Shown here piece by piece: positions 11,743 to 28,300 of a stretch of DNA of 64,000 bases. The DNA lies in IMG/VR virus record IMGVR_UViG_3300047553_000733, positions 38,185-102,184 of that record; one strand, given 5' to 3'. The stretch comes from a virus. Numbering within the stretch: the first letter of the stretch is position 1; each line of letters starts with the position of its first letter. Position numbers and translations under genes: made by a program. The notes under the pieces were generated by a model that was not told the DNA's origin, searched no databases, and saw nothing but the letters and a program-made list of their open reading frames with translations.

Positions 11743-12357
11743 TTAAGCACCAAATACGTGTAGCGCGTGCTCGTAGTGTTTTTGTCTATCTTCTAATCCG
11801 ATAGTACCGCCGTTAATTCGTTTTGTTAATGTTACGATGTCACCACGATCTGCCCACTGATTTAGGTTATTTGTTTCCCAGAACCAGCATGCACTCTGTG
11901 CTGCACCCTCAAAAGTTTCCATATACTCACTAGCTTCTTCAGGGCTAATGCCTAAACTGGCTGCAAACCAGCTGTAATTGTCACGACCAGTTACCTGTAT
12001 TAATCCGCGACCACAAAACCTCCAACCATCTCCGCTGGCCTCATCACCATTGCCCATGCGATTAGCATATACTCTGTTAGCAATCCTTTGTGGCTGCTTT
12101 TCGTATTGCTGCGCCAATGCGTCCGTTTGAAAATACTTGGGAAAAGTTTTTCGTAGGGACTGCCACTTATAGTTTAGATTCTCTTTGATAAAAACAAAAT
12201 TACCCGACTCATGAGCACACTGTGCTAAAAAAGCTGCTAATCGTTGCGGAGTGTCAATTTGGTACTGCGGCAGCAATTGTTCCAGTGCATTGAACCAATA
12301 TTGTGTATACTGATTTTTAGGTATAATTTGTTGTAAGTGTTGTAATTCTAATTCCAC
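11743..12357 (-). CDS. endolysin, glycoside hydrolase family 19
   Basis: AAFLAQCAHESG, ENLNY, YANRMGNG, GRGLIQVTGR, TKRING; likely GTG start at 12357 (TAGTG overlap, SD AAGGAG). Confidence 0.92.
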   Translation of the reverse strand: MELELQHLQQIIPKNQYTQYWFNALEQLLPQYQIDTPQRLAAFLAQCAHESGNFVFIKENLNYKWQSLRKTFPKYFQTDALAQQYEKQPQRIANRVYANRMGNGDEASGDGWRFCGRGLIQVTGRDNYSWFAASLGISPEEASEYMETFEGAAQSACWFWETNNLNQWADRGDIVTLTKRINGGTIGLEDRQKHYEHALHVFGA

Positions 12358-12617
12358 TACTTTAACTCCTTGTAAATATTTTGTTGTGTTTTGTACCACT
12401 CTTGCCAGCCATGTACTAACACACTACACTGATAGTGTTTTGTATAATTTTCTACAACTACTTTTGTTAAGTCTACTAAGCTGGCCTCTTTAGCTACTTC
12501 TTTAAGCTGCTCGCATTGTTGCATTAACACATCAGGTGCTTGCGGAAATTTTTGAGTAACTGGCACAGTAGTACTGCAACCAGTTAGTAGTAATAAAATA
12601 AGGACAATATACTTCAT
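12357..12617 (-). CDS. o-spanin (Rz1-like lipoprotein)
   Basis: lipobox LTGC, Pro-rich mature N-terminus, next to the endolysin. Confidence 0.85.
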   Translation of the reverse strand: MKYIVLILLLLTGCSTTVPVTQKFPQAPDVLMQQCEQLKEVAKEASLVDLTKVVVENYTKHYQCSVLVHGWQEWYKTQQNIYKELK

Positions 12618-13045
12618 GGTTTTGCTGCCTTATTTATTGTGGTAACTACCTCATCAGGTAATTTAGGACATTGTTCAATATACTTGACTACTTCTTGATT
12701 TTTTACAACTTCACGGTCTATATACTTTATAATGTCTTCACCACGCTCTTTTACGATTTGTTTTTTAGTGATTACTTTTTCAACTATTTTAACATTTTCC
12801 TCAGCGCTTTTAGCTTCTAAAGTTTTTACTTGTAGTTCTAAGGCGTGTGTACGCTTACGCCATGCATCATCATTGGCCTGCATTCCTAGCATGTACACAC
12901 TTAAAAATACTATGGCTATAGACGCCCACTTAAAAGTGCTACTATATGGTAAAACCTTTAGTGTACTGGACACTAGATATAGTACAATGCCTAAAAAGAA
13001 AGTTAATTGAAATATCCACGAAGGTAAAAAATTAAATATCCACAC
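12614..13045 (-). CDS. i-spanin (Rz-like)
   Basis: N-terminal TMs, periplasmic coiled coil, C-terminal Cys; ATGA overlap with the o-spanin. Confidence 0.8.
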   Translation of the reverse strand: MWIFNFLPSWIFQLTFFLGIVLYLVSSTLKVLPYSSTFKWASIAIVFLSVYMLGMQANDDAWRKRTHALELQVKTLEAKSAEENVKIVEKVITKKQIVKERGEDIIKYIDREVVKNQEVVKYIEQCPKLPDEVVTTINKAAKP

Positions 13046-13084: not shown

Positions 13085-13780
13085 TCACTCCACCAATTCT
13101 GGAAATAAGTCTTTATGTATAAAATCATGTACCATTTCCTCTGTAAATCCTAAAGCCTGCAACACTTTAGGTGTGTGCGGGTTTTGTTTTTGTTGCTGAC
13201 AGTAAAAATTTTGGTGCTTGGTGTAGTTATACTCACGCACTAAGTCATCATAACTTTTAGGTGGTCTGCTATACATTATATTATCCAAGTAGTACACCAA
13301 CAACTCTTTACTTAAGTCTAATATTTCTACTAACTCAAACTCAGTATTAATGTTACCAGCTGCAACCATCTTATCACTAAATATCTTTTTAGCCCAGTCT
13401 GGCAGTACTCTAGGTTTTGACCACTCATAGCGGCTAACTTTATCACTAAAGTACTGATTAAACTTGTGCTCGGGATCAACAGGGCTAAAGTCTAAGAAAG
13501 CTCCTGTAACTTTATTTGGGCCAGCAACAAGGTCAAAACCAAATATTGGTGCACCGTCAAAAATATGCGGAAATACACATAGGTGCATCATCCACAGTTT
13601 CTTTGTTTCTGTAGCGTCTATTATGTCTAAGTGCATGCGTCTTGCAAGTGCACTACTATAAACTTGGTTAGTCCAGTTATAGGTGTTTGTTTCAGGCAGT
13701 AAAAAGGCCCGTGAGCTTAAAACTTTTTCAAGTTCTAGCGCATGGGCCTTTAACCTATTAAAGATTATACTCATCTGCAA
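13085..13780 (-). CDS. pcyX: ferredoxin-dependent bilin reductase, PcyA/PcyX type
   Basis: RRMHLD, MMHLCVFP, PIFGFDLVAG, DFSPV, LPDWA..IFS, YCQQQKQNPHT; Asp at the PcyA Glu76 position, as in PcyX. Confidence 0.85.
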   Translation of the reverse strand: MQMSIIFNRLKAHALELEKVLSSRAFLLPETNTYNWTNQVYSSALARRMHLDIIDATETKKLWMMHLCVFPHIFDGAPIFGFDLVAGPNKVTGAFLDFSPVDPEHKFNQYFSDKVSRYEWSKPRVLPDWAKKIFSDKMVAAGNINTEFELVEILDLSKELLVYYLDNIMYSRPPKSYDDLVREYNYTKHQNFYCQQQKQNPHTPKVLQALGFTEEMVHDFIHKDLFPELVE

Positions 13781-14279
13781 TCCTGCTAAACAGGTGCAAG
13801 GTTAACTCAAAGCATTTATTTGCTTCACTAGCCATGCTAACATCCAATTTAGTCCTTAATAGTTGTATTAATTCTTGACGATTTTGAAACTGGTACATTG
13901 CTCCGCTACCAGGTACTTTGCTTTTTATTATCTGACCACCGTATAAATCACCCATATGTTTGGTATATATGTGTGCCCATAAACCGTGATCAGTTAAACA
14001 CTTTACGTGTCTGCAGTATTCTGCGGTACTGTCAAATATAATTACTGGCTCGTCTAATTCCAGTAAGTCTTGCAGTATGTACTCACTGCGTTGTATGCCT
14101 GGCAAATCTTGTAACAAATGGTCTGCACAGTGCTCTAGTACTTGATATTGTAGCAACTGATTTGCTAAGTAAGTGGCGTATATGCCGCTAGTAATTTTTC
14201 CACCAAGTAGTAGTTGTGTAAACTTGTGATTTTCTGCAATTTCGTGGTTGTGATGTGTTAATTCTTTTAATGTTGACAT
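13758..14279 (-). CDS. hemO: heme oxygenase
   Basis: LKELTHHNHEIAE (proximal His), AHIYTKHMGDLYGGQII (distal helix), EANKCF. Confidence 0.92.
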   Translation of the reverse strand: MSTLKELTHHNHEIAENHKFTQLLLGGKITSGIYATYLANQLLQYQVLEHCADHLLQDLPGIQRSEYILQDLLELDEPVIIFDSTAEYCRHVKCLTDHGLWAHIYTKHMGDLYGGQIIKSKVPGSGAMYQFQNRQELIQLLRTKLDVSMASEANKCFELTLHLFSRIADEYNL

Positions 14280-15127
14280 ACATACTCATGTGGTTGTATA
14301 AATTTATAGTCGCCTATAAGATTTGTTCGCAGCTTTGTTAAATCTGCTTTGCTATAGTATTGATACTTTCCGCGCAACTCGTTGGGCATATCAATCCTGT
14401 GCGAGTTATCTGTGTACAGTCTAGCAATTTCTAAAAAGCTTGTAGCTACACCAGACCCTAAATTGTAGATGCCTGGGTGTTTGTTGGTATAATTAACCAT
14501 GACGTTTACTACATCGTCAACGCACACAAAGTCTCGTAGTATTTTTTCACTGCCATGAAACAGTGTAACTATACCTTCCTGCTCAACCTGTTCTTTAAAC
14601 TTGCTGATTGGGCTTTGCTGTGCACCTTTGTGCTGTTCGCCACTGCCGTAGACATTGAATGGTCTGAATACCCAGGTATTTGGCATGCTGGCAACCACCT
14701 CACTCAACTGTTTGGACACTGCATACGGATTGAGTGGATCTAGCTTGTCAGTTTCACAGAATGTTTCGCTATTGCCATATACACTAGCGCTGCTTGTGTA
14801 TACCAGAGGTATTTGCTTCAGCTGACAAAATTCTGACCAGCTAAGGGTATGGGTATAGTTATAGTTAAGCAGTCGTTTGCCATCCGTTTCTGTGGTGCTG
14901 GAAATCCCGCCACAGTGAAATACCTTGCATATGTCCAGCTTTAGCAACTCAGTCCAGTTTATATTGTCTAAATCACGGTAGGCCAAAAACTTTAGTGTTT
15001 TTAGGGTCATCAACTTGCTGGCATCACTACAATCATCAACAATTAATATATTTTCTATGCCTTGCTTATTAAGCAACTTGACCAAGTTACTACCAATAAA
15101 ACCAGCACCGCCTGTTACGACATACAT
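14267..15127 (-). CDS. hldD: ADP-L-glycero-D-manno-heptose 6-epimerase-like SDR
   Basis: VVTGGAGFIGSNLV, ISSTTETD, SSASVYG, PLNPYAVSK, FNVYG.GEQHKG, RDFV.VDD, GKYQYYSKADLTKLR. Confidence 0.88.
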   Translation of the reverse strand: MYVVTGGAGFIGSNLVKLLNKQGIENILIVDDCSDASKLMTLKTLKFLAYRDLDNINWTELLKLDICKVFHCGGISSTTETDGKRLLNYNYTHTLSWSEFCQLKQIPLVYTSSASVYGNSETFCETDKLDPLNPYAVSKQLSEVVASMPNTWVFRPFNVYGSGEQHKGAQQSPISKFKEQVEQEGIVTLFHGSEKILRDFVCVDDVVNVMVNYTNKHPGIYNLGSGVATSFLEIARLYTDNSHRIDMPNELRGKYQYYSKADLTKLRTNLIGDYKFIQPHEYVCQH

Positions 15128-15417
15128 TGAAAATATTCCTTGTCACTGAGCGCTTTATCGTCTATGAATACATCATAGCTAGGCTTTTTCATATGTAATT
15201 TGGTGTATTTGCAACCCCACGCCTCAAGCTGCTGTTGTGTAAGTTTGGTATAGTCTTTGCCACTGTGACCGCCACGCGCAGTCCAGTAGTGAATCTCATG
15301 CCCACTATCAAACAACTGATTTATGTGCTCAATACGATTTGTGTAAGGTCTGGCCAACTTATAGTTGCCGTTTGTGTTTGTGCAAATAGTGCCGTCAATA
15401 TCAATATAGTAAATCAT
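15115..15417 (-). CDS. small HAD-superfamily sugar phosphatase (possible GmhB role)
   Basis: DIDGTI, WTARG, KP..DVFIDDKA. Confidence 0.8.
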   Translation of the reverse strand: MIYYIDIDGTICTNTNGNYKLARPYTNRIEHINQLFDSGHEIHYWTARGGHSGKDYTKLTQQQLEAWGCKYTKLHMKKPSYDVFIDDKALSDKEYFQCMS

Positions 15418-15770
15418 CGCTGACTGTCGCCGGGTTGAACTCTGTAATTATCCTCTACGCTGTCTGGAGTGCTCACCTCTAATACAGTGCCTGCCTCCAA
15501 ACAAATAATTCTGTGTGGTACTAGCTTGGCGTTGTGGTGTACCCCGCCTTCGCCAATGATCTTCTTATGCACTTCTGCTGTGTTGGTGTCAATAGTTTCA
15601 ATTTCGAACCTACCACTTAACACATACCAAGTTTCCACTTTTTTACTATGAAAGTGCATTGAAAACTTAGCACCTTGATTAAAGTTTAAAAACTTACTGC
15701 AGTAGTGATCGTTTGTAGCCCATATCAATTCACTGCCCCAGCCCTTTTTAACTAATCCCTCTAATCTCAT
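15414..15770 (-). CDS. cupin, sugar-phosphate isomerase/epimerase-like
   Basis: KGWGSE, SMHFHSKKVETWYV, PHRI, LEVSTPDSVEDNYRV. Confidence 0.8.
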   Translation of the reverse strand: MRLEGLVKKGWGSELIWATNDHYCSKFLNFNQGAKFSMHFHSKKVETWYVLSGRFEIETIDTNTAEVHKKIIGEGGVHHNAKLVPHRIICLEAGTVLEVSTPDSVEDNYRVQPGDSQR

Positions 15771-16551
15771 CTATTTCTTTCAGTTTAGGCGCGTATACGC
15801 CAACATGTTTTACTGTTATGCCTGCTGCTAAGTTAGCAAACTTAATTGCCTGTTGCATACTGTTTGTATTCAAATACTCAAACACTAGTGCGGATAAAAA
15901 TGTATCGCCTGCTCCGCATACGTCGGCTACTTGCACTGGATCACTGGAAAAGTACTCACCCAGATATGTAGTACCGCGGCCGCCCAGTGTAACAATAATA
16001 TTATTGCCTACAGTGTGTGCTTGATTGCGTTCGTGCTCATTAATTTTAATAAACACATTTGGCTTATCAAACTGTTGCAAGTCTGTTTTCTTGGTATCTA
16101 TGAATACTGGACAAGTGGCTTGATCTATAATTTCGTGTAGTAACTCATAGCTTACACAGCCCTTGTTGTAATCACTAACCACAATTGCGTTATATATGGG
16201 AGGTATTTTAGTTTCCAGCTCCAGCGGCTTGCTGTATGCGTCTTGATCTAGGCGCATTATGTGCTGACCACTTTTACTGTCAATAAATCTAGTTTTAACA
16301 CTGCCTGGCAGTGTAAGCAGCTCAACTGTGCAATCAAGTGCCTGCAAGTTCTCGCGAACATTGGCAGCCATGCCCGGCTTTTCCAGCTCTGTTTGTGGTA
16401 CAAATACTGGCACAGGTGCTTCAGGGCTCAGCCTGTTAATACTTCCAAAAACATACTTATCAACGCAAACGTCGCCGATTAATAAAATGTTCCAAGATTT
16501 GCGTTGTTGAGTCAGTAGTTGTTCTGCTATAAAATTCAAGTCGTTTTGCAT
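15748..16551 (-). CDS. hldA: D-glycero-beta-D-manno-heptose-7-phosphate kinase (HldE domain I, PfkB family)
   Basis: IGDVCVDKY, RLSPEAPVPV, GMAANV, SDYNKG, DVCGAGDTF. Confidence 0.88.
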   Translation of the reverse strand: MQNDLNFIAEQLLTQQRKSWNILLIGDVCVDKYVFGSINRLSPEAPVPVFVPQTELEKPGMAANVRENLQALDCTVELLTLPGSVKTRFIDSKSGQHIMRLDQDAYSKPLELETKIPPIYNAIVVSDYNKGCVSYELLHEIIDQATCPVFIDTKKTDLQQFDKPNVFIKINEHERNQAHTVGNNIIVTLGGRGTTYLGEYFSSDPVQVADVCGAGDTFLSALVFEYLNTNSMQQAIKFANLAAGITVKHVGVYAPKLKEIDEIRGIS

Positions 16552-16867
16552 ATTCTGAACCGATTACAGGCTTGTTGCGATAGTCACTGCCTACAATCAT
16601 TATGTCTGGTCTATATTGTTTTACTAGTTGTGTTAGTTCTACATCACTGTCGAACACAACCACTTCATCAACCCAGCGTAAACTTTCTAATAGTTTTTTT
16701 CTGTTTTGTTGTGGATTTAGTGGTCTGTCCGCACCTTTTAACTTTGCAACCCTGTCATCAGAGTCGATACCTACAAGCAAAAAAGTACCTAAACTTGCCG
16801 CGTGCTGCAACAAGTTCAGGTGACTTGGATGTAAAACGTCAAAAGTGCCGTTTACAAATATTTTCAT
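16460..16867 (-). CDS. hldC: heptose-1-phosphate nucleotidyltransferase (HldE domain II)
   Basis: NGTFDVLHPSH, GIDSD.RV..LKG.DRP, GSDY, STTQI. Confidence 0.85.
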   Translation of the reverse strand: MKIFVNGTFDVLHPSHLNLLQHAASLGTFLLVGIDSDDRVAKLKGADRPLNPQQNRKKLLESLRWVDEVVVFDSDVELTQLVKQYRPDIMIVGSDYRNKPVIGSEYAKRLEFYSRTTTDSTTQILEHFINRRRLR

Positions 16868-18645
16868 TGGTTTGCTATTGTTACCAGTTTACCATACTCT
16901 GGTAGATAAAGATATTCAATTTCGCTTTGTTGCAGTGTCCACAGTGCGTCTTCCAATGTTTCTACCAGCGGCTCTCCACCAAGGTTAAAGCTAGTATTGA
17001 ATATAATTGGTATTCCAGTTTGCTTTTTGAACTCACTAATTAGTGCGTAATAATGAGGATTCTCATTAGTGTTAACTGTCTGAATACGACAAGTTCCATC
17101 TACATGTATAATGCTAGGAATCTTATCCTCAACTCCAGGTTGGCAGTTAACCGCATACATCATATGCGGGCTTGAGTTCATGCCGCGTAAATCAAACCAC
17201 TGGTGCACATCTTCTTCTAAAATGCTACCTGCAAAAGGTCTAAAATATTCACGGTGCTTGATGCGGTTTACGTAATCTTTTCCGTCCACAAAAGTAGGGT
17301 CAAACATTAGTGAGCGGTTGCCCAGTGCTCTGGGGCCGTTTTCACTGCGACCTTGAAACATTGCAACAATATTCTTTTTACGCATTAGTTCTACAACTTT
17401 TGCATTATCGCAAGTTTCTACGGTACCACCATACTGCTCAGCAATAGCCTCTATTTGATCAGTATAATCATACTTTGGACCTAAGTAGATTTCTCGTGGA
17501 TGTGTTTCTGTGGCCTGTGTAAGTTGATGATAACCCCACAGTGCAACACCAATTGCTGTGCCGCCATCATTGCTAACTGGCTCAACATACAGCTCAACGC
17601 CTTCATCACGCAGTGTTTTTAAGTAGTAGTAGTTTGCAACACAGTTTAGGGCATATCCGCCACTAAGTACTACTTGTTTTTTACCTGTTAATTCTACTGC
17701 ACTCTTAATTAGCTGTAGTACCTGTGCTTGAGTTTGTGTTTGACAAGTATATGCTAAATCTCGCCTATTTTGACACTTGGTAACATCCTGATCTGTAATA
17801 GTTTGTAGTTCGGAGTACATTGATGCATTAACTATTGCACCGTTAGGATATCTAGGTATAATAACATTTCTGTCACTGATTGGGGCTACTTGTGAATCTA
17901 TAAATAGCTTGGGTATTTGTTCGTTTGATTTGCCATATGGAAATAATCCCATAGTTTTTCCAGCTTCAATAGAACTAAACCCACAATATTCTGTTACTGC
18001 TTCATATACTTTAGTAATACCAGCATTTCCACTTATAAACTCTATATGTGTGCCTTGCTCACCAAATTTTTCACTATTTTCGCTGTGGTTGTAGTGACCA
18101 ACAATTGGCTCTTTGCAACCCAAGTGTTTGTAAATAGTTTTAAAGTTTGCTGGATAGCTACAATCAAATACTGTTTCTGTTTCCCACAATATAACCTGTT
18201 GATTATCAAACATAGCTGGATACATCGTACCAGCTCCGTCAACAATAACTGCTACAGCATCGTTAAATCCACTGCGATAAAATGCAATTGCTGCATGAAT
18301 TTTATGGTGTGAATGGCTAAGATCAATTACTTGTGGATGATTTCGTAAGTCTGCTTTACGATCTATAAATCCCATTTTTCTGGCTAAACCAGTATAAACG
18401 TCGTCGCCAGTATAGTCTACTTTGCCTGCGGTATCATGCAGTGATTGTGTGTGCGATACAAATATAAAATCAAGCTTATCAGTATACTCTTTTACCTTCA
18501 TCATGGTGGCATAGGGACCACCATCATATTTTTGACGACTTAATCGTTCTTCTTCTAAGCTAAAAACAATTTTTCCGTCTTTTAATAGACAGGCACCAGC
18601 ATTGTGCCCTCTAGCAATTCCTAAAATATATCCTGTTTTATTCAT
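16864..18645 (-). CDS. O-carbamoyltransferase, NodU/CmcH/TobZ family
   Basis: EEERLSRQK, HHKIHAA, VDGAG, GKTMGL, GGYALNCVAN, DGGTAIG, GPRALGNRS, KHREYFRPFA, HVDGTCRIQTV, NTSFN. Confidence 0.93.
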   Translation of the reverse strand: MNKTGYILGIARGHNAGACLLKDGKIVFSLEEERLSRQKYDGGPYATMMKVKEYTDKLDFIFVSHTQSLHDTAGKVDYTGDDVYTGLARKMGFIDRKADLRNHPQVIDLSHSHHKIHAAIAFYRSGFNDAVAVIVDGAGTMYPAMFDNQQVILWETETVFDCSYPANFKTIYKHLGCKEPIVGHYNHSENSEKFGEQGTHIEFISGNAGITKVYEAVTEYCGFSSIEAGKTMGLFPYGKSNEQIPKLFIDSQVAPISDRNVIIPRYPNGAIVNASMYSELQTITDQDVTKCQNRRDLAYTCQTQTQAQVLQLIKSAVELTGKKQVVLSGGYALNCVANYYYLKTLRDEGVELYVEPVSNDGGTAIGVALWGYHQLTQATETHPREIYLGPKYDYTDQIEAIAEQYGGTVETCDNAKVVELMRKKNIVAMFQGRSENGPRALGNRSLMFDPTFVDGKDYVNRIKHREYFRPFAGSILEEDVHQWFDLRGMNSSPHMMYAVNCQPGVEDKIPSIIHVDGTCRIQTVNTNENPHYYALISEFKKQTGIPIIFNTSFNLGGEPLVETLEDALWTLQQSEIEYLYLPEYGKLVTIANQ

Positions 18646-18651
18646 AAATAA

Positions 18652-19680
18652 TTATACTAAACTTGTTTTCTTTGCAAATGGTGGTATGGAGGCGTTGTGC
18701 TGGCAGCTATCAGTATGTACATGATTAGTTGCAACTAGCTCAGGTTTAGAATCTTTTTGTTTAGATTTACCTAGTTTATCAGTAACGCTCTTAATCATTT
18801 TATCAAAAGTTTTATCTTCCAAAACCATTAAGTACTCATTAGTTCTATCACTAACAAAATCCATAGTAATTCGTATTGGACTATAGATGCGCTTGTCTTT
18901 ACCATTATCTATAATAGTAAAATCCTTATTATCTGGATAACTAATGTTTTCAGGATAAGTGGCACCTATAACAACAGTTGCTGGTTTACTTAAGGCATGA
19001 GCATAGTGCTGTCCAACACTATCACAACCTAAAAAATAATCTGCTGCATTAATTATACCCATCCACTGCAGTAAATTCGCATTTGGTATTGCTGCAGCCA
19101 TTTGCTTATCTGTTGGTATTTCTACATTGGACATCATAATTACAGCATAATGTTTTCCGAGCTCTTCTACTGTTCTGTATACATCTCGTAACTCAAAACT
19201 ACGACCACTGGAATCAATTATAAAATTACCGTCTTTTTGTACACCGCTACCAAAAGGTTGAAATACTACAGCTTTTTGTTTACCTAACTGTGACTTTACT
19301 TGTGATACTAGTGTGTGCCCATACGCTTGGTCAACTTTATTTATCTGTAGATTAAATGGTTTGGTTGCTGGAATATCTTTTAAATCATTTATCAATATAT
19401 CAAATGCTTGGATTAAGTTGCACTTTTGATTAAAATATGCATTTAATCTATAAGGTTCAGGACTAATTATTTCTTTATCTTTTAATTTTTCTTCAAAAAG
19501 ACTTTTATGACCCATTGGCCATACATTATTACGCAATACAGGACTAGCTAAAAATATTTCGTTCCAGGCCTCTGCAACAATAACAACGTCTTGATCTATG
19601 TTTTGCTTATACCACTCTAATGCTGGAATAGCACAGAGTACTCTGCCTATTCCACCATTAATAAAAAATGCTTTTTTCAT
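18652..19680 (-). CDS. GT-B glycosyltransferase, GT9 (heptosyltransferase)-like
   Basis: N-terminal GGIGRVLCAIPAL; C-terminal ADYFLGCDSVGQHYAHALSKPATVVIGAT, compare the GT9 DSG..H.AAA..P....G.T motif. Confidence 0.8.
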   Translation of the reverse strand: MKKAFFINGGIGRVLCAIPALEWYKQNIDQDVVIVAEAWNEIFLASPVLRNNVWPMGHKSLFEEKLKDKEIISPEPYRLNAYFNQKCNLIQAFDILINDLKDIPATKPFNLQINKVDQAYGHTLVSQVKSQLGKQKAVVFQPFGSGVQKDGNFIIDSSGRSFELRDVYRTVEELGKHYAVIMMSNVEIPTDKQMAAAIPNANLLQWMGIINAADYFLGCDSVGQHYAHALSKPATVVIGATYPENISYPDNKDFTIIDNGKDKRIYSPIRITMDFVSDRTNEYLMVLEDKTFDKMIKSVTDKLGKSKQKDSKPELVATNHVHTDSCQHNASIPPFAKKTSLV

Positions 19681-19718
19681 ATAGTTTCTGATGGTTTATT
19701 TTGGTAGTTAAAGATAAA

Positions 19719-19747
19719 ATTATACCACAAGTTACTAAAAAAGTAAA
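19719..19747 (-). promoter_or_regulatory. promoter for the enzyme operon
   Basis: TTTACT-17-TATAAT with extended -10 (TGG TATAAT). Confidence 0.7.
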
Positions 19748-19781
19748 ATGTATTTTTAACTACGCTTAACCATATAATACC

Positions 19782-20222
19782 TTATTCTGCTGGTACTTCC
19801 GCTGGTGGCGGTGGCGTTGGTTCAGGCTCTGGAGGTATATTTGGTGGTACATAGTCTGGTGCAACTACTTTTGGTGGTTGAACTATATACTCTGTGTCAA
19901 ATACAAACTTTGCCTGCTCCTCGCTGTACTCTGAAGTTAGGTCGTTATAAGTTATAACTTCGTCAAATATTGCATCCATAGTGTCCGTAATAGGCAATAA
20001 ATCTTGTTGATAGAGTGCAATAAAAGCAAATAGTGGACTATCAGCAACTGTTAGCTCCTGATAGTAGTACATATTTTTAGGATCATTAACAAAATCTTCT
20101 GCATCAATTGCAATTTGATCAAACTTATTATCCAGGTTCATTCTGCAATAAAGCGTATCTGGTAAGTCTATATCAAAAGTTTTTGTTTGCTTGTCTGCAA
20201 TTAAATAAGTAATTGTTGTCAT
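19782..20222 (-). CDS. acidic hypothetical protein, possible fibre assembly chaperone
   Basis: follows the fibre genes; Pro-rich C-terminus; SD AGGA. Confidence 0.6.
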   Translation of the reverse strand: MTTITYLIADKQTKTFDIDLPDTLYCRMNLDNKFDQIAIDAEDFVNDPKNMYYYQELTVADSPLFAFIALYQQDLLPITDTMDAIFDEVITYNDLTSEYSEEQAKFVFDTEYIVQPPKVVAPDYVPPNIPPEPEPTPPPPAEVPAE

Positions 20223-20231
20223 TATATTTCC

Positions 20232-21281
20232 TTATTTAAATGTTACTATTACTAGTCCAGCGCTACCACAAGCGCCATAGTTAGGGCCTTCATAACAACT
20301 AGACACATTACCTGGGCCGCCCAGTCCTGGTTTGCGGAATACATTATAGGCATTAGCACAGCATCCGCTATATTCATATCCACTAAATCCGCAACTGATT
20401 GCGCAAACTGTATGATTTGGCATTACAGTATAGTTCCACTGACACATATAACAAATGCTATTACCACACTGCGCTACTGCCCATACCAACGAAGGAATTT
20501 TTGCTTCTACAGCTATAGCATTACCGGAAGTAACTCCACCCACACATAAGCCATCATATCTGTATGTAGGCTTACTAAAGTAATTACTACACTGAAAATA
20601 ACCAGTACACGCCATTAAATTAGATTGACTAGTTGCGTAGTGATGGCCGTTGCTTGGGTAGTAGCATCTTGCACCAACACCACATAAATTACCATATCCA
20701 GTTAAACCACCACAGCTTAGTATACAAGTATCGTTACTGCCACACACAAAGCTATTACAACCATCATAGGCACAATAACTATAACAATTGTTTTGTGTGG
20801 TGGCTATACCGCCACCAGCACATAGCGTATACTGCTGGCCAGCCTGTACATTCATTAATACATAAGTATACTCGCCATTTCCACCACTTTGTGCAAAAGA
20901 GCAACAAGCGCCCCAGCTACACGCACTACCATTGCCGCCAGCACCCCAAATTTGAAACTGTGCCTGTGTAACGCCAGCTGGCACTGTCCATAAACAGCAG
21001 CAACCACCAGCGGTACTGTAATTCGTAGTTTCTCCAACAGTTATAACTCCAGCGGCACCAGTCATCAACTGATTTGGGCTAGGCAGATTGTACCCACCAT
21101 AAAAAGTAGTCCAGTTACGACGCACACCATTAGCAGCAGACAATGCTGCTGCTGCGTTGGTAGTTGCACTGTCTACTTGAGTTTTTAGCGTATTTAGGTC
21201 AGCATCTCCAAAGTCATTAGAATTATTAATTCTAATATTTTTCTTTACGGCCAACTCTAAAATATCATTAATTTTTGACAT
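20232..21281 (-). CDS. Cys-rich tail/adhesin-type protein with glycine-rich domain
   Basis: WTVPAGVTQAQFQIWGAGGNG ... GSAGLVIVTF; 27 Cys in 349 aa by hand count. Confidence 0.7.
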   Translation of the reverse strand: MSKINDILELAVKKNIRINNSNDFGDADLNTLKTQVDSATTNAAAALSAANGVRRNWTTFYGGYNLPSPNQLMTGAAGVITVGETTNYSTAGGCCCLWTVPAGVTQAQFQIWGAGGNGSACSWGACCSFAQSGGNGEYTYVLMNVQAGQQYTLCAGGGIATTQNNCYSYCAYDGCNSFVCGSNDTCILSCGGLTGYGNLCGVGARCYYPSNGHHYATSQSNLMACTGYFQCSNYFSKPTYRYDGLCVGGVTSGNAIAVEAKIPSLVWAVAQCGNSICYMCQWNYTVMPNHTVCAISCGFSGYEYSGCCANAYNVFRKPGLGGPGNVSSCYEGPNYGACGSAGLVIVTFK

Positions 21282-21313
21282 TTTGTCTCCAAATTATATA
21301 TTTATATCTTAGA

Positions 21314-22354
21314 TTAGCACCAGCTAACCTTAACCATGCCCATACGGCCCCAATCACCACATAGTGAAGTACAGCCGCCAAATGCTACACTAGCCGTGCC
21401 ACCCATACCAGGGAATGTCCAAATTGGCGTACCATTTTGTGAATTTGTAGCTCCACAGCAAGCAGCTTGATAAAACGGGTTACAAGTTTGGCCATTATTA
21501 AACACAAGACAGCAGCAAGCTACTTGCGACTTACCGTCCACAGGACTTACTAGTGGAGGGTGAATATGGAACCCATAGATATTGGTATCCATGCAGGTTG
21601 CTCCATGTATACTATTATGACCAAAAGGTGTACCATAAAAAGTTACTTCTGTATCATTAAATACTGGAATACAGCCACAAGTTGCGCAACTATTATCATT
21701 ACAATAATAACTAGTACCACAAATACATCCACCACTGCTAGTGCAAGTAGGATTTTGCCAGCGGCAGCACATACTAGTACCGCAAAGCTGTGTTCTTTGT
21801 TGACACATTCTGCGAATAAGATTGTGACAACCACCATTTGCACAGAAATTGGTTAGCCCATATCCTGTTACTGATGATGGGCTACCTTGATATGTAGCAT
21901 TTAGTGTGCAGCACAGTCTGTTTGCATCTGCACAACCGGCTGTTAATACATACTGACAGCCAGGGGTTACGGGAATTATTGTGGTAGCATATGCGCCTGT
22001 TGCACCAAATGGTGCACCGCCACAACACATACCAGCACCACCTTGTGCCCCTGGGCCCCAGATTTCAAACTTTGCAAAGCTAACTCCGCTTGGAACAGTC
22101 CAAGTGCAGCTAGCTCCACATCGCTTAAAACTACTAGTATCACATACTTGCAGTGTACCAGTACACTGTGTTAAGTGCGGAAAAATACATTTCCAACACT
22201 CTGGATTACAGGCATGACAAGCCAGCACGTTTTTAATTGAAGTAAAAGTACCAGCTGCTGTAAAAGTAGCCTCGGCCATTGCACTAGTTGCAACGGCCTT
22301 GGCTTTTGTTCCGACAGCTAACAAACTGCCATTTAAATCTACTATATTAAACAT
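21314..22354 (-). CDS. Cys-rich tail/adhesin-type protein with glycine-rich domain (paralogue)
   Basis: WTVPSGVSFAKFEIWGPGAQG ... GRMGMVKVSW; 37 Cys in 346 aa by hand count. Confidence 0.7.
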   Translation of the reverse strand: MFNIVDLNGSLLAVGTKAKAVATSAMAEATFTAAGTFTSIKNVLACHACNPECWKCIFPHLTQCTGTLQVCDTSSFKRCGASCTWTVPSGVSFAKFEIWGPGAQGGAGMCCGGAPFGATGAYATTIIPVTPGCQYVLTAGCADANRLCCTLNATYQGSPSSVTGYGLTNFCANGGCHNLIRRMCQQRTQLCGTSMCCRWQNPTCTSSGGCICGTSYYCNDNSCATCGCIPVFNDTEVTFYGTPFGHNSIHGATCMDTNIYGFHIHPPLVSPVDGKSQVACCCLVFNNGQTCNPFYQAACCGATNSQNGTPIWTFPGMGGTASVAFGGCTSLCGDWGRMGMVKVSWC

Positions 22355-22368
22355 TTATTGCAGCCTCC

Positions 22369-25300
22369 TTAAGATAGTACTACTGAAGTAATCTGTAAAT
22401 TATTATTGTAATTTACAGTATATGTGCCATTTTTGTATCCTTGCGCATGAGTTTCAGTAATCTTATCTATTACCTTTATCGGTGCACTTACATATGTTGC
22501 AATTTGGCCTGAGGTTAGTGTTGGTGAAGTAGTAGGTATTGTTATACTGTTACTTGTTAACCAAGCACTAAATCCTGGTATAAACTGACTGTACGGTATT
22601 CCGTCAGCATTTGCTGGTAGTGTTACATTTTTATATGTAACTGCGTAAGTATAAGCATCCCATGTTGCGGCAGTTAAATAACCATTTGCATCATAAGTTG
22701 TACTTGCTCCACTTATGCCATTAGTATTAGTTAGTGTATTAACATAAGTTCTTACAGCATACTCAGTAGGTACAGCAGTATTACTGTTACCACTCATACT
22801 TGCATCACTACTAAATTCGTTAATAGTTTCACCAAGTTGAGCACCAATACTACCAAGTTTCAAGCTAGTCAAACCAGCCAAGTCGAAAGCGTTAGCGTTC
22901 AGTGTAGCACGTCCAGTTGCCTGGTCAATACGGAAATATTCACCTACACGGAAGTTACCGTCTTGGTCAGTACTTACATAGAATACGCGACCTGGGTATG
23001 CTTCGTCTGTTTCATTGCCCTGCGCAGCTGCTTGTGTTGGAGTACCTGGATAGTTAGTAGTACTAATACCACCTGTACCAATACTCAAGAAGTCATGACC
23101 AGTTAAACGAATCTGTGAATACTTACTGCGTAGCGTAACTGCTGTGCCACTTGCACTGCCAGTTGGTTTTTCTTGTGCTAGCACAACTACCAATTGACTT
23201 GTAGCATCTACATAGGTACCGGTTACACTTTGTACCACATAAGCAACTGCATCGCCAGCTAGTTGAATACTTTGACCAGGTTTCGGTGCCGCTGTTAGAT
23301 TGTTTAATACAAGTACAAAACCTTTTTGGCCTTCCAATGCACCCGCACTTACAGTACCTGTTCCACCACTAGTAAATGTCAGCGTATTACCAAGTGCAAA
23401 AGTACCAGTTGTAGCTTTCAAGTACACCTTATTGGCACTGTACTGTACATTAGTAACTATACCAGTAGCACCACTGCTGCTTGTACAAGTATCACCAACG
23501 TTAATAGTACCGCCCTGATAAACAAAGTTTAGTTGCTGACCAATTAGCGCACCTGTTACTGCTGTTTCGTTAACATCGAATCCTCTACTTACAGCACCCC
23601 AAGTACCATAACTATTGTTACCATTTAGTGCACGAATATGTCCACCACCAGTACTTGCGTATCCAAAGTAACAGTAGTAGGTAAAGCAACTTACAATCTC
23701 AGCCTTGCCACCATCCTTCATCCAGTAACCAATACCATTATCACTGATAACAGTAAAGCCGTGGAAGATCATGGTTTTTGCACCGGTTGCGTGTACAGTA
23801 CCGTCAACTAGCGCACCAATTAATCCACTACCAATTGCACTGCACTCCAGTACATAAGGAGATTTTGTAGTAATTGGGCTTGCAGGATTCAATCTTGCTA
23901 CAACACCACGAATAGTACTAGTTGTAATATCGCCAGGTGTTGCACCAGGAACCCAGCCAGTCATGCCAACAAACGTCATTTTATTAAGAATGCTGCCATT
24001 GCTCAATAACCACATTGTTGATTGATTGTTTGGCGTTACGCCATCGTCACTGTTACCGCTTGCAGGCTGTACAATTGTAGTACGCTGATTGTCGCCAACA
24101 ATGGCTACATTGGCTGGTACCGTTATTGGTAGTTGCTCACTGTATGTACCAGTTTTTACAAAAATTGTACTACCTGGTTCAGCTTGTTGGCAAGCATACT
24201 TGATACTTGCAAATGGTGTAGCTAAGTTGCTACCATTAACTGCTGTGTCCACACCGTGTGGGGCAACATAGTAAACTTTACTAGACTCTGTAGCACCAAG
24301 CCACAGTGCTGCTGTACCTGCCGAAGATATAGTAGGGGATCTACCAACCTTTGTGCCACCAGCATTTAGTGGTGCAGCATTTACCTGATTAGCTAGTAGG
24401 TCATAATAAAGGATATTATTACCCTGATTTGTACTTGGTACTGCTACAACTTCACCAGTGTTATTTAGCACCGAGAAGCCTACAAATTCATAGCTGTTAT
24501 ATGGTAGTCCGTAATCTTTTAGTTCTTTTATTTCCTGTGTAGCATACTGGAAAGCTTCGCGTATACTGTTGAATACGTAGCTGCTAGGTATTTTAATAAC
24601 ACGATCTGTGCTATTTGTTGCCACAAAATAAGTATTTGTAAACTTATTAGCAGGAATATTGTTTAAGTCAAATCCAGTTCCGGCGTTAACATAGTTATTA
24701 TATTGTGGAACTGGTGTTAGTGTTGTTGTAGCCGCAAAGCCAGTTGCACCGCCAGTATCTGTTGCAATAATATTTGCATAGCTGTAATGCTTGCCAGGGT
24801 CAACAATTGTAACGCCTAAAATACCGCTTGGTGTAGCTTGTATAGTAAATTGGGCTCCAGTACCTGGGGTACTGCTGTTAATTGTGGCTGTTGCGTATGT
24901 GTAGTTTGTACCAGGATTAGTAATTGACACGCTGCCAATACTATTACCCTCAGCAAGTGTAAGTGCAATTGCACCGTTTTGTGCATATTGATTAGCAGTT
25001 AGCTGAACAGTTGGTGTACTTGTGTAGTTTTTACCTGGATTGGTAACTGTTACACTGCCAATTGGGTAACCACTCAGTATAGGGTTAACTGTTGCTCCAG
25101 TACCACCACCACCACTAAATGTCATGGTTGCGTATGTGTAGCCATGTCCACCATTGGTGATTACCACATCAGTAACACCACCAGCAGTTACTTGCGCAGT
25201 TGCAGTAGCACCATGTCCGTCACCAGTAATGGTAACTGTTGGTGCACTGGTATAGCCACTACCCACATTGGTGATCTCATAGCCCTGAATAAAACTCTTT

Positions 25301-28300
25301 AGAGTATACGCAGTTGCTGTAGCACCAGTACCGTTACCAGTAATTGTTACGTTTGCGTAAGTATAGCCGCTACCGCCATTAGTAATGTCAATGTCAGTAA
25401 CTGCTCCGGCAACTATGGTTACTGTTGCTGTTGCACCAGTACCGTCACCAGTAATTGTTGCAGTTGCATTTGTATAGCCGCTGCCCAATGTATCCATGTG
25501 CACGTGTGCAACCGGTGTACCTGTGTTTAGCGTAATTGCAACTGTGGCACCTGTGCCACCTCCACCTACCACTGTACCAGTTACACTAGTATAACGGCTA
25601 CCTGCATTAGTAATTGCTGCGCTTGCAACGTTTTTACCTGGTGCTACTACTAGTGCCGCTGTTGCTCCAGTACCGTCACCACTTAGGGTAATGGTAGAGT
25701 CATTGGCATAGTTATAACCAGCATTAGTTAGTGTAATGCTTTGTAGTGGTGCACCTGCTAGTACAGGTGTAACTACTGCTCCAGTACCATCACCCTGCAC
25801 GCTTAATGTGGTAGATAAACCGCTATATCCGCTACCCTGGCTGGTAACTGTTACGCCACCAAGAACGCCAAGCTTATAGCTGAACTGTGCGTCGTCAAAG
25901 TCTGCAAGTTTCCAGGTAGAGCCTATTCTTGTTAAGAACTTGTTACCGGTTTTTACTGGTGCTGTAAATGTTAAGTCAGCATCACGTAATTCACCAGTTT
26001 TTGTGTTTGTGTATGTTGCTACGGCTGCACTGATCGGTGTTAAACCATAACCACTAATTACTTTAGCCTTTTCAGCACGCTTTAGTCTGACCAGTGTAGC
26101 ACCGTCCATACTAATGCCGTGGCGCTGATCTTCAACGCTTAGCGCACGACTATTGTTGCTGCTGCCATTTACTGCAGCTACATTTGCCGTTGTGGTCAGT
26201 ATAGCATCTGTGCGATTTGCTGAGCTGGTTAGTGTGCCGCCTTCAAAATAGAAGTAGTTGTATCCAGCAATGGTAGCGCTTTGTCTAGAGACTAGCGCAG
26301 TCTTTTCATAGCGTACACCGTTAATCCAGTAAACAAACTTTGTTTGTCCAGGAGCTGGGAATACTACTAAGGTTCTTGCGGCTGCGTTTGTTGAGTAGGC
26401 TGTTCCGCTGGCAAATATGCCATTTTCGCGAACAGTTACTGCACCTGTTTTGTCGATGCTATAAACGCGTGTACCGTTGTCGCTGTACTCAACAACACCG
26501 CGAGTATCTGGGTGCTCGTTGTCGAATCCAGTTGGATCCATTGTTGTATTAGTAACAGTAGAACCACTAATAACATCAAGTACACCGTCAACAGTTACAT
26601 TGCTCTTTACAGTTGTAAGAGCACCTGTTTTACCCAGTGTTAAGTTATTAGCTGCGCCAAATGCAGTTACTGTGGTAGCATTCTCATTAGCCAGGTTTAG
26701 TGTTGCAGCACTAACTGTAACATCGCCGCCATCAATGTTAACGTCACCGTCAACATCTAAGTTATTTTTAATGCGTGTTGTACCGGTTGTTGCACCGATA
26801 TTAACACTTGTAGCTGCACCAAATGCGTTAACTGTAGTTACTGTGGTGTTAGCAAGATTAAGGTTGTTACCGCTAACAGTAACATCGCCACCATCAATAT
26901 TCAAGTCACCGTCTACATCCAAGTTACCGCTGACACGAGTATTACCAAGTGTAGAAGTACCGTCTGTGTTAAGTGTAGAGCCGTTGGTAAGATTTAAGCT
27001 ACCACCACTAATATTAATAGTTGCACCATTTTGTGCTGTATAGCTAGCATTTACGCCGCTTGCAACTAGTGGACCACTGATGGTTCCGCCTGCTGCTGCA
27101 TTAATAAACTGGTCTACATAAGCTTTTGTAGCTGCGTGTAGTGGATCTGTTGGTGCTGCATACAGTGTAAGCATACCAAGCATAGCATCACCATCTTTAG
27201 ACAGGAAGCCTTCGGCACCAGTAGCAAAACTGGCCCAATTTGCATTTGTTCCACCAGCTGGGTTACTGCCACCAATTGTATCAACTGCAGCAATAAAAGA
27301 ACTAGCACCAGCCTTTACTACATCATCTTTGTAGTATTGTGTTGTACTGTTCCAAGTACCCATCCAACGAATACCACTGTTAAATTTCTGCCACTTGTTG
27401 GCAGCTAAGTCAGTGTTAAAGTCTACGGAAGCGTGTGGTAAAATGGAAATATAAGTATTGCCGCCATAGGTTACAACTTCATCAGTTGCATACTGTGTAG
27501 CAGTTGCCCATGTACCACGTAATTTGAATCCTGCAACAACCTTGTCCCAGGTAGCTGTAGTTGTTGGGTTAACACCCTGATTGTCAGCCTTTGAGCGATA
27601 TAGTGAACCGCCATAACCAACAATCTCATTGATTTTATATTCAGTACCGCTAGACCATACGCCTTGGTATGAAAAACCGCTACTGTATACTTGCCACTTA
27701 GTAGCATCAGTAGGTAAATTACCTGTTGTTACGCCAAGTGCAATATAAACATTGCCGCCGTAGCTAACAATATCGCCTTGGTAGTAGTTGGTAGCATTTA
27801 CGTATGTACCCTTGTAGCTATTACCAGCAGTTAACAGTTCCCAATTAGCTGCAACTGTAGGCAGTGTATTGGACTGTGTTAACTTTGAACGATAGATATT
27901 GTTACCGTACACAACAATATCATTTACATAATATTCTGTTACAGCACTGTAGTTACCAGTAAACTTAATACCACCAACATATAGTTCCCAGTAAGTTGTA
28001 TTACTAGGAGCATTGCCGGTAGTTTCTGTCTTGGCACGATAAATGTTAGCACCGTAGGCTACTAAGTCATTTGGTACATAGGCTGTAGCTTCGTTATAAA
28101 CGCTACGAGGGCTAACGCCCTCAACAAACCTATCCCAATATGCTGTAACTGTTGGTAAGTTATTTGTTCCGTCTTGTTTTGCAACATAGATAGATCCACC
28201 ATACTTAACAACGTCATTTTTCTGATAAGACGTTGTAGGAGAGTATGTACCTTCGTACTGAATACCATCCAAGAAACGTGACCAGTATGTGGCATTAGGA

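Follow-up and report, generated by a model that had tools for sequence, protein, structure and literature searches.

In the T4-like cyanomyoviruses P-SSM2 and S-CAM1, a block of lipopolysaccharide or 'LPS genes' (PSSM2_301-313 and SXBG_229-216; T4-GC 296-308) was described by Sullivan et al. 2010, who left its function unknown and considered that it might be 'stuffer DNA' (PMC3037559). The virion proteomics in that study covered S-SM1, S-PM2, and Syn9 only, none of them a carrier of the block (PMC3037559), and our search of the literature found no paper that assigns a target to it. Outside phages, TibC uses ADP-heptose to heptosylate an adjacent adhesin, which sets a precedent for fibre decoration (PMC4358343), and the Pseudomonas LPS core is known to bear a carbamoyl group on its L,D-heptose, at HepII, an addition credited to WapO (PMC8005017). 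A further point of reference is gp24 of cyanophage Pam3, a fibre that binds the receptor, is hypervariable at its distal tip, and has a Tfa-like chaperone, gp25 (PMC9608196). Here, we describe a related block in IMG/VR virus record IMGVR_UViG_3300047553_000733, for which we analyzed the right-hand 64 kb (positions 38,185 to 102,184 of a 102,184-bp record estimated to be 96% complete; hereafter the window). Behind two Cys-rich tail proteins, CysA and CysB, the block encodes a GT9-fold glycosyltransferase-like protein (GT), an O-carbamoyltransferase (CT), and a set of ADP-heptose supply enzymes. Its best reading, to which we give a probability of roughly 0.45, is that of a self-contained cassette that tailors the phage's own fibre tips with carbamoyl-heptose. 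The first-pass annotation of this DNA had presented the locus as having no counterpart in any characterized T5-like phage; the cassette itself, however, is already on record in the T4-like cyanophages under the 'LPS genes' name (PMC3037559).

In the mechanism we propose, the phage would make its own ADP-L,D-heptose using a cupin as the isomerase, an HldA kinase, a small HAD phosphatase, an HldC adenylyltransferase, and an HldD epimerase, roles that are suggested by family matches. The soluble GT9-fold enzyme would then transfer the heptose, which the TobZ-type CT would O-carbamoylate, the role suggested for WapO at HepII in Pseudomonas LPS. The acceptor would be the CysA and CysB fibre tips, putative receptor binders similar to Pam3 gp24, during their assembly in the cytoplasm, and the carbamoyl-heptose would tune or protect the host-recognition surface. 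We favor the fibre tip over host LPS as the target because membrane and lipid-carrier machinery is missing from the cassette, the GT family is confined to phages, and the GT N-domain is not basic. Decoration of the fibre is also favored because Cys-rich neighbors recur in several phage backbones.

The source phage is reasonably regarded, from its sequence, as an uncultured, marine, T5-like virus. A siphovirus virion module lies on the minus strand of the window and comprises a large terminase, portal, protease and capsid, major tail protein, tape measure, and a J-like tip protein; because the protease/major-capsid region shares 35-37% identity with T5 and with T5-like Vibrio phages, the T5-like label, also used in the first-pass annotation, is a fair one. 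No near-identical DNA was present in the phage collection. The block reads, again on the minus strand, fibre, CysA, CysB, p146, a 101-nucleotide (nt) gap, GT, CT, HldC, HldA, cupin, HAD, HldD, hemO, and pcyX (Table 1). The open reading frames (ORFs), their order, and the family assignments made in that annotation were all recovered by our ORF and family checks; its count of eight genes was not, since the spacing check gave nine from GT to pcyX. Neighbors among these nine are either separated by 6 nt or overlap by 4-92 nt, and the only sizeable gap in the block is the one before GT. None of the proteins of the block has a transmembrane (TM) segment or a signal peptide.

Searches of IMG/VR with GT recovered 39 loci and those with the Cys family recovered 77. 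CT directly followed GT in every locus of the 39-locus set that had DNA there, and a profile of the Cys family found at least one member upstream in 32/32 GT loci with more than 1.7 kb of upstream sequence. Reciprocally, each of the 70 Cys-family loci that extend far enough downstream had GT, as well as CT wherever the DNA reached, while in the seven Cys-family loci without GT the contig ends within 1.6 kb of the Cys gene. The co-occurrence and adjacency of GT and CT with Cys-rich genes, proposed earlier as a check on the locus, were thus complete in both directions. Across over 100 loci, 30-99% identical and on several backbones, order and linkage were strictly kept. This conservation bears on the option, left open in the literature (PMC3037559), that these are passenger 'LPS genes' captured from a host and have no function tied to the fibre, that is, the 'stuffer DNA' of Sullivan et al. 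2010. Strict order and linkage across so many loci and backbones, reading frames that are intact and tightly coupled, and a phage-only GT family of 3349 clusters at 90% identity (each annotated as 'hypothetical') speak against passenger genes, which we consider very improbable.

The GT family gave 11 matches among the genomes of 185,579 species, and because all 11 were on contigs of metagenome-assembled genomes (MAGs) that carry the same phage module, we regard the family as restricted to phage DNA. The 11 'cellular' contigs (L122-L132; labels of this form denote relatives of the window locus, L002 being P-SSM2) are phage sequences binned with MAGs of unrelated phyla (Methanobacteriota, Actinomycetota, Neomarinimicrobiota, and Flavobacteriales), likely through binning contamination.

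More distant homologues of GT, at 28-29% identity, retain the GGxGR signature in Aeromonas phage HJ05 and the N4-like Vibrio phage SBP1. The HJ05 homologue adjoins a 559-aa tail protein with 23 Cys, and that of SBP1 a 925-aa tail protein with 41 Cys. Both HJ05 and SBP1 are without CT and Hld genes. In a clade at ~30% identity, the GT-CT pair is kept near small proteins with 5-10% Cys, among GT2, GT4, a sulfotransferase, and several 2-oxoglutarate (2OG) oxygenases. Scans with distant GT representatives yielded five loci with P0183 and none with P0243 or P0205. In one locus (L134, 1941-11868; also L137), GT-CT belongs to a larger cluster, located downstream of a small 6%-Cys protein, with a sulfotransferase, GT2, GT4, and four 2OG oxygenases, which suggests that this cluster builds an oligosaccharide.

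The nearest relative, L003, served as the reference for a comparison of DNA identity along the block. Down to position 22740 the fibre genes are 97% identical, after which the tract of 19757-22740 (fibre C-tip, CysA, CysB, and p146) has no DNA similarity between the two phages. Identity is 70-81% over GT and the N-domain of CT, steps up to 97-100% at ~17400, where the Kae1-like acceptor domain of CT gives way to its YrdC-like domain, and is 88-100% over the Hld genes. From these steps it follows that the fibre tip, Cys genes, GT, and CT acceptor domain diverge jointly, and that the donor-supply genes, at 95-100% identity, do not. Recurrent recombination at the CT boundary was also considered and dropped, the break being clean in the window/L003 pair only. 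Co-variation of this kind fits equally with masking of the receptor. In that case, the cytoplasmic substrate of GT and CT would be a lipid-linked glycan precursor of the host, for the LPS core or a surface polysaccharide, and carbamoyl-heptose on the receptor bound by the adjacent tips would block superinfection or the sticking of progeny to debris. The logic would be that of T5 Llp, encoded beside the receptor-binding gene, or that of seroconverting phages.

CysA and CysB are 28% identical to each other and share the family motifs C.WTVPAGV, WGAG.G, GCCCGG, and G.V.VSY; in the remaining tail proteins of the window, Cys makes up 0.2-0.7%, far from the values of this pair (Table 1). The best fold matches of the CysA model (pLDDT 70) were the Pam3 fibre gp24 (7ypx), the Bxb1 tail tip, and the glycine-rich domain of ALK. 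By Foldseek, the match to 7ypx has an E-value of 1.6e-5 and a probability of 1.0, yet a TM-score of 0.29-0.38. The small partner protein p146 may be a fibre chaperone. In L018 and L019, every CysB-type gene is followed by a homologue of p146, and other relatives have a protein of ~225-240 aa between or after the Cys genes. In L022, this protein is a PF16778 tail assembly chaperone and lies between the Cys gene and GT; the p146 of the window itself had no such Pfam match. From the apparent likeness to the Pam3 gp24 fold, together with the chaperone-type neighbors in relatives, we therefore take the Cys-rich proteins to be probable virion fibre-tip proteins, in line with their earlier designation as tail proteins. 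The fibre encoded upstream of them is 61-62% identical in its C-terminal part to the tail fibres of P-SSM2 and S-CAM1, and its last ~125 codons (22369-22740) fall in the exchangeable tip tract. Internal DNA repeats in the fibre gene (25090-25490 and 26650-26930; 68-76% identity between copies) fit repeated shaft modules.

GT scored 17 bits against Pfam GT9 (PF01075), below the gathering cut-off of 22, and a few of its 120 close homologues have a precomputed match to that family; a GT profile run against PDB sequences matched none of the solved GT9 structures. Its AlphaFold model (pLDDT 81.5), however, has a GT-B fold, for which VIA-align returned 3tov (Z 21.0), WaaF (20.6), TibC (19.0), and WaaC (18.0), and 11.9 for the next GT-B protein outside GT9. 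Overall, GT9 structures reached Z 17-21 against the model and other GT-B folds 12 or less, and the top 11 Foldseek matches were all GT9. Beyond the fold, hhalign tied GT to GT9 over a segment of 45-49 columns, in which its GCDSVGQH pairs with VDTGLSH of WaaC and NDSGLMH of WaaF, where the motif is D-[ST]-G-x-x-H; D220, S221, G223, Q224, and H225 of this donor motif are invariant in the family. The case for ADP-heptose as the donor is one of co-location, the Hld genes lying beside GT in 18 of 21 long loci. No other glycosyltransferase family was detected in this genome, which leaves GT as its sole member of that kind, nor were 2OG oxygenases found in it.

Those GT9 relatives bear on the masking of the receptor in two ways. 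Most functionally characterized GT9 enzymes are heptosyltransferases of LPS, with WaaF and WaaC among the top fold matches here, carbamoyl-heptose is a known feature of the LPS core (PMC8005017), and the P-SSM2 genes were published as 'LPS genes' (PMC3037559). The phage GT, on the other hand, belongs to a family that is absent from the cellular LPS loci of the 185,579 genomes, and its N-domain (charge -6 to +3) is without the basic surface of WaaF (+6) and WaaC (+7). Nor does the cassette include a flippase, a lipid-carrier transferase, a membrane glycosyltransferase, or any TM protein, and in an infected cell that is not growing only newly made LPS could be altered. Masking of the receptor would also leave the Cys-richness of the neighboring tail proteins unexplained in four phage backbones. 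On balance, we hold it to be less likely than decoration of the fibre, though still the alternative to be taken most seriously.

CT scored above threshold for both of its domains, with 95.5 bits for PF02543 and 196.7 bits for PF16861, and its PDB matches were 7xb6 (E 9e-61), TobZ (2e-44), NovN, and GdmN, which bears out the NodU-type carbamoyltransferase of the first-pass annotation. Its closest solved relatives are O-carbamoyltransferases of sugars or macrolactams; weak matches to HypF and Kae1 were present as well. In several relatives, CT is directly followed by P4H-like 2OG-Fe(II) oxygenases and MTS-type methyltransferases, possibly further tailoring enzymes (Table 1); neither kind occurs in the genome of the window phage.

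As to the donor, HldA and HldC each correspond best to one half of HldE. HldA as listed shares 92 nt with HldC, and its homology to relatives begins near residue 17; translation probably starts downstream, at a codon inside the ORF. SIS-type GmhA (PF13580) had no match in this genome, P-SSM2, S-CAM1, or three IMG/VR carriers. Heptose genes were counted in the 21 non-redundant loci whose sequence extends 5 kb or more past CT: Hld genes were present in 18 of these, and the cupin in all 18 (0/3 in those without Hld genes). The nearest Atlas clusters of the cupin are viral cupins, the members of which partly match mannose-6-phosphate and lyxose isomerase families. Because GmhA is absent, the cupin is always found with the heptose genes, and its neighbors include isomerase families, we infer that it may replace GmhA as the sedoheptulose-7-phosphate isomerase. 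The small HAD phosphatase, found in only 7 of the 18 heptose-bearing loci, is of the EcbF/BcbF type (9iqw, a 'capsule biosynthesis protein', and 1xpj), outside the GmhB family, and is likely a functional stand-in for GmhB. The ADP-heptose pathway of the first-pass annotation holds up as a reading, with the corresponding families as the best models, below their curated cut-offs, of HldA, HldC, and HldD. Two deposited names in P-SSM2, PSSM2_311/312 (L002 11903-12584), look wrong, in that the 'phosphoheptose isomerase' is the small HAD and the 'cysteine dioxygenase' is the cupin.

The nucleotide sugar could in principle also serve DNA hypermodification by glycosylating modified bases, like arabinosyl-hydroxycytosine pathways, an alternative that had been raised in the initial annotation. 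The pathway logic is the same (isomerase, kinase, HAD phosphatase, and nucleotidyltransferase), and the small-HAD family (1xpj) occurs in a phage DNA arabinosylation pathway (PMC13326640). However, no hydroxymethylase of the thymidylate synthase (ThyA) family or hydroxylase was found in this 96%-complete genome, HldD points to heptose, the GT fold is that of GT9 and not of a DNA glycosyltransferase, and the genes are linked to fibre genes rather than replication genes. Hypermodification of DNA is hence one of the least credible of the alternatives.

Turning to expression, the promoter annotated earlier in the gap before GT is present as a sequence, and its extended -10 and its -35 are kept at the same position in five relatives (L003, L004, L005, L006, and L008) despite differing flanks; promoter-like sites in the region are nevertheless at chance level (51 found vs 49 expected). 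P-SSM2-like loci have a near-consensus GT promoter (TTGACT-17-TATAAT), and only 2/19 show the T4 late motif TATAAATA. The near-consensus sigma70 promoter GGTTGACTATATAAGTCAACAATGATATAAT stands ~60 nt upstream of the GT start in L002, L016, L017, and L076-L089, all P-SSM2-like cyanomyoviruses. In T4-like cyanophages, a sigma70-type promoter suggests early rather than late expression. An operon with its own sigma70-like promoter is not simply co-transcribed with the fibre genes, and a promoter of this type, possibly early, in both lineages is a further point in favor of receptor masking.

Several of our observations weigh against decoration of the fibre tips. The promoter may mean that the operon is expressed early and not in time with the fibres. 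Tight linkage to, and co-variation with, receptor-binding genes are equally expected from receptor masking, which is for this reason a serious rival. The linked loci share common ancestry, and our counts of them measure conservation, not independent events. Nine pairs of loci step up in identity at the CT domain boundary, the C-domain being simply more conserved in most of them. HldA, HldC, and HldD all score below the NCBIfam curated cut-offs (Table 1), as is expected for diverged viral copies.

The remaining point against that reading concerns the active site of GT. The catalytic Asp past the first strand is D13 in WaaC and D110 in TibC (PMC4358343). GT aligns G12-R13...P19 with G12-D13...P19 of WaaC and has an Arg at this position, as do 118/120 close homologues and 74/75 diverse representatives; one Lys was seen and Asp never. 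No characterized GT9 enzyme is known to lack the catalytic Asp. Judging from the sequence, the substitution may indicate another mechanism, another acceptor, or no transferase at all.

The last of these would make GT something other than a fibre sugar transferase, either a maturation or assembly factor of the tips that involves their cysteines, with CT acting on thiols like HypF on HypE, or one half of a pair that makes a soluble carbamoyl-heptose metabolite with another role. The invariant Arg is consistent with this, as are the plant NDH subunits among the top matches, which have a GT9-like fold and are structural proteins, and the weak HypF/Kae1 matches of CT. GT and CT also occur as a pair without heptose genes within reach in L008, L018, and L007, and GT occurs without CT in the Aeromonas and Vibrio phages. 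Set against these points are a nucleotide-sugar binding motif that is invariant across deep divergence, the full donor pathway beside GT in most of the long loci (18/21), and closest relatives of CT that O-carbamoylate sugars and macrolactams, such that a non-transferase GT appears improbable to us.

Where GT is taken to be the fibre-tip transferase, its invariant Arg at the position of the catalytic base points to chemistry undescribed for GT9 enzymes. In a bolder form of the tailoring proposal, GT would belong to a new class of protein glycosyltransferases that attach heptose to Cys thiols (S-linked), or to another acidic nucleophile, of the receptor-binding tips, for subsequent O-carbamoylation, with a donor pathway in which the cupin takes the place of GmhA. 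This form is speculative, and we think it quite doubtful.

At the downstream end of the operon, we read the hemO-pcyX pair as neighboring cargo, translationally coupled to the operon end and dispensable for the sugar chemistry. A hemO and a pcyX-type reductase stand beside the heptose cassette in 8/21 long loci, in some on the opposite strand. We did not find psbA in the genome, nor tRNAs in the window. Directly past pcyX is a lysis cassette (11743-13045) of p143, a TM protein, p86, a lipoprotein with an LLLLTGC signal and an Rz1-like LysC family match, and p218, which has a weak GH19-like endolysin match.

Table 1. Features of the fibre-tip and heptose block. Positions are those of the window unless a relative's locus is named; bit scores are given with the curated cut-off where one applies.
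Feature	Position	Strand	Family match or other basis
Long tail fibre, 2075 aa, CBM5/12 modules	22369-28596	-	phrog_9851 tail fibre E 7.5e-243; PF02839
CysA, Cys/Gly-rich fibre-tip protein, 346 aa, 10.7% Cys	21314-22354	-	phrog_35878, phrog_4205
CysB, paralogous Cys/Gly-rich fibre-tip protein, 349 aa, 7.7% Cys	20232-21281	-	same PHROGs and same alignment family as CysA
p146, acidic, Pro-tailed partner protein	19782-20222	-	no family match
Sigma70-like promoter, extended -10, TTTACT-17-TGTGGTATAAT	19719-19747	-	in the 101-nt gap before GT
GT, GT9-fold glycosyltransferase-like protein, 342 aa, GGxGR signature, donor motif GCDSVGQH	18652-19680	-	fold and motif
CT, TobZ/NodU-type O-carbamoyltransferase, 593 aa, Kae1-like N-domain and YrdC-like C-domain	16864-18645	-	PF02543, PF16861
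HldC-like heptose-1-phosphate adenylyltransferase, 135 aa	16460-16867	-	TIGR02199 best, 110 bits vs cut-off 181; PF01467
HldA-like heptose-7-phosphate kinase, PfkB family	15748-16551	-	TIGR02198 best, 144 bits vs cut-off 345; PF00294
Metal-site cupin, 118 aa	15414-15770	-	Cupin_2, weak MannoseP_isomer match; HxHx4E metal-binding motif
Small HAD phosphatase, 100 aa	15115-15417	-	PDB 9iqw E 1.8e-9, 1xpj; weak TIGR01689, NF046079
HldD-like ADP-glycero-manno-heptose 6-epimerase, 286 aa	14267-15127	-	TIGR02197 E 1.4e-70, 238 bits vs cut-off 274.6
Heme oxygenase hemO	13758-14279	-	PF01126
Bilin reductase, pcyX-type	13085-13780	-	PF05996
Oxygenase/methyltransferase stretches after CT	L008 12862-14101; L009 12745-13978; L013 12786-13313; L022 12875-13501		

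If the fibre tips are tailored as we propose, then host range in abundant marine phages would depend on sugar modification as well as on protein sequence. This would affect the prediction of host range from genomes, as well as the counting of cyanophage 'LPS genes' as auxiliary metabolic genes. Should the S-linked form of the proposal be true, host-recognition proteins in the ocean would undergo a post-translational chemistry that is abundant, specific to viruses, and not seen before. The cultured carriers P-SSM2, S-SSM7, and S-CAM1 make the question directly testable.

Among known systems, TibC/AAH with their adhesins TibA/AIDA-I share with the phage cassette a GT9-like GT-B catalytic domain (Z 19), and they use ADP-heptose on a cytoplasmic adhesin precursor encoded next door (PMC4358343), as would GT under our proposal. 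The phage GT differs in having no N-terminal extension or iron-finger, the builder of the dodecamer (it begins at the first strand, and its model aligns with TibC 97-393 only), in having Arg in place of Asp110, and in showing no detectable sequence similarity; the putative acceptor is a Gly/Cys-rich tip rather than a Ser-rich beta-helix, and CT is an addition. WaaC/WaaF have the fold and the donor-binding motif in common with GT, and with WapO the proposed order of heptose and then O-carbamoylation has a known chemical parallel (PMC8005017). Unlike WaaC/WaaF, GT has no catalytic Asp and no basic N-domain, belongs to a phage-only family, and falls below the Pfam GT9 threshold. Pam3 gp24/gp25 (7YPX; PMC9608196) offer the TNF-like plus glycine-rich receptor-binding architecture that is the best fold match of CysA, and a chaperone gene like that of the relatives. 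CysA and CysB depart from gp24 in their 8-11% Cys, placed within Gly-rich motifs (GCCCGG), in forming paralogous sets of 1-3, and in following a separate 2075-aa shaft. Mycobacteriophage-encoded glycosyltransferases reportedly decorate the phages' own virion proteins (Freeman et al. 2023, as cited in PMC12801897). The glycosyltransferase families and the targets in that system, capsid and tail tube, are reportedly different ones, and it is not known to involve a phage-encoded donor pathway, heptose, or carbamoylation.

The closest likeness remains the P-SSM2/S-CAM1 block, which has the same fibre, Cys-rich pair, GT (45-58% identity), CT (47-49%), HldC, kinase, HAD, cupin, and epimerase, and is likewise flanked by tail-fibre genes. 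Here, in contrast, the block is in a 102-kb T5-like siphovirus, with the epimerase co-oriented and the order of cupin and HAD reversed; it runs into hemO-pcyX and lysis genes, and the partner protein is of the p146 type and not the ~225-aa chaperone type. The new points relative to that description are the T5-like backbone, the reciprocal linkage, the match of the Cys-rich fold to Pam3 gp24, the mosaic pattern, the Arg at the position of the catalytic Asp, the distant homologues in phages of Aeromonas and Vibrio, the argument on the cupin and GmhA, and the caveat that comes with the promoter.

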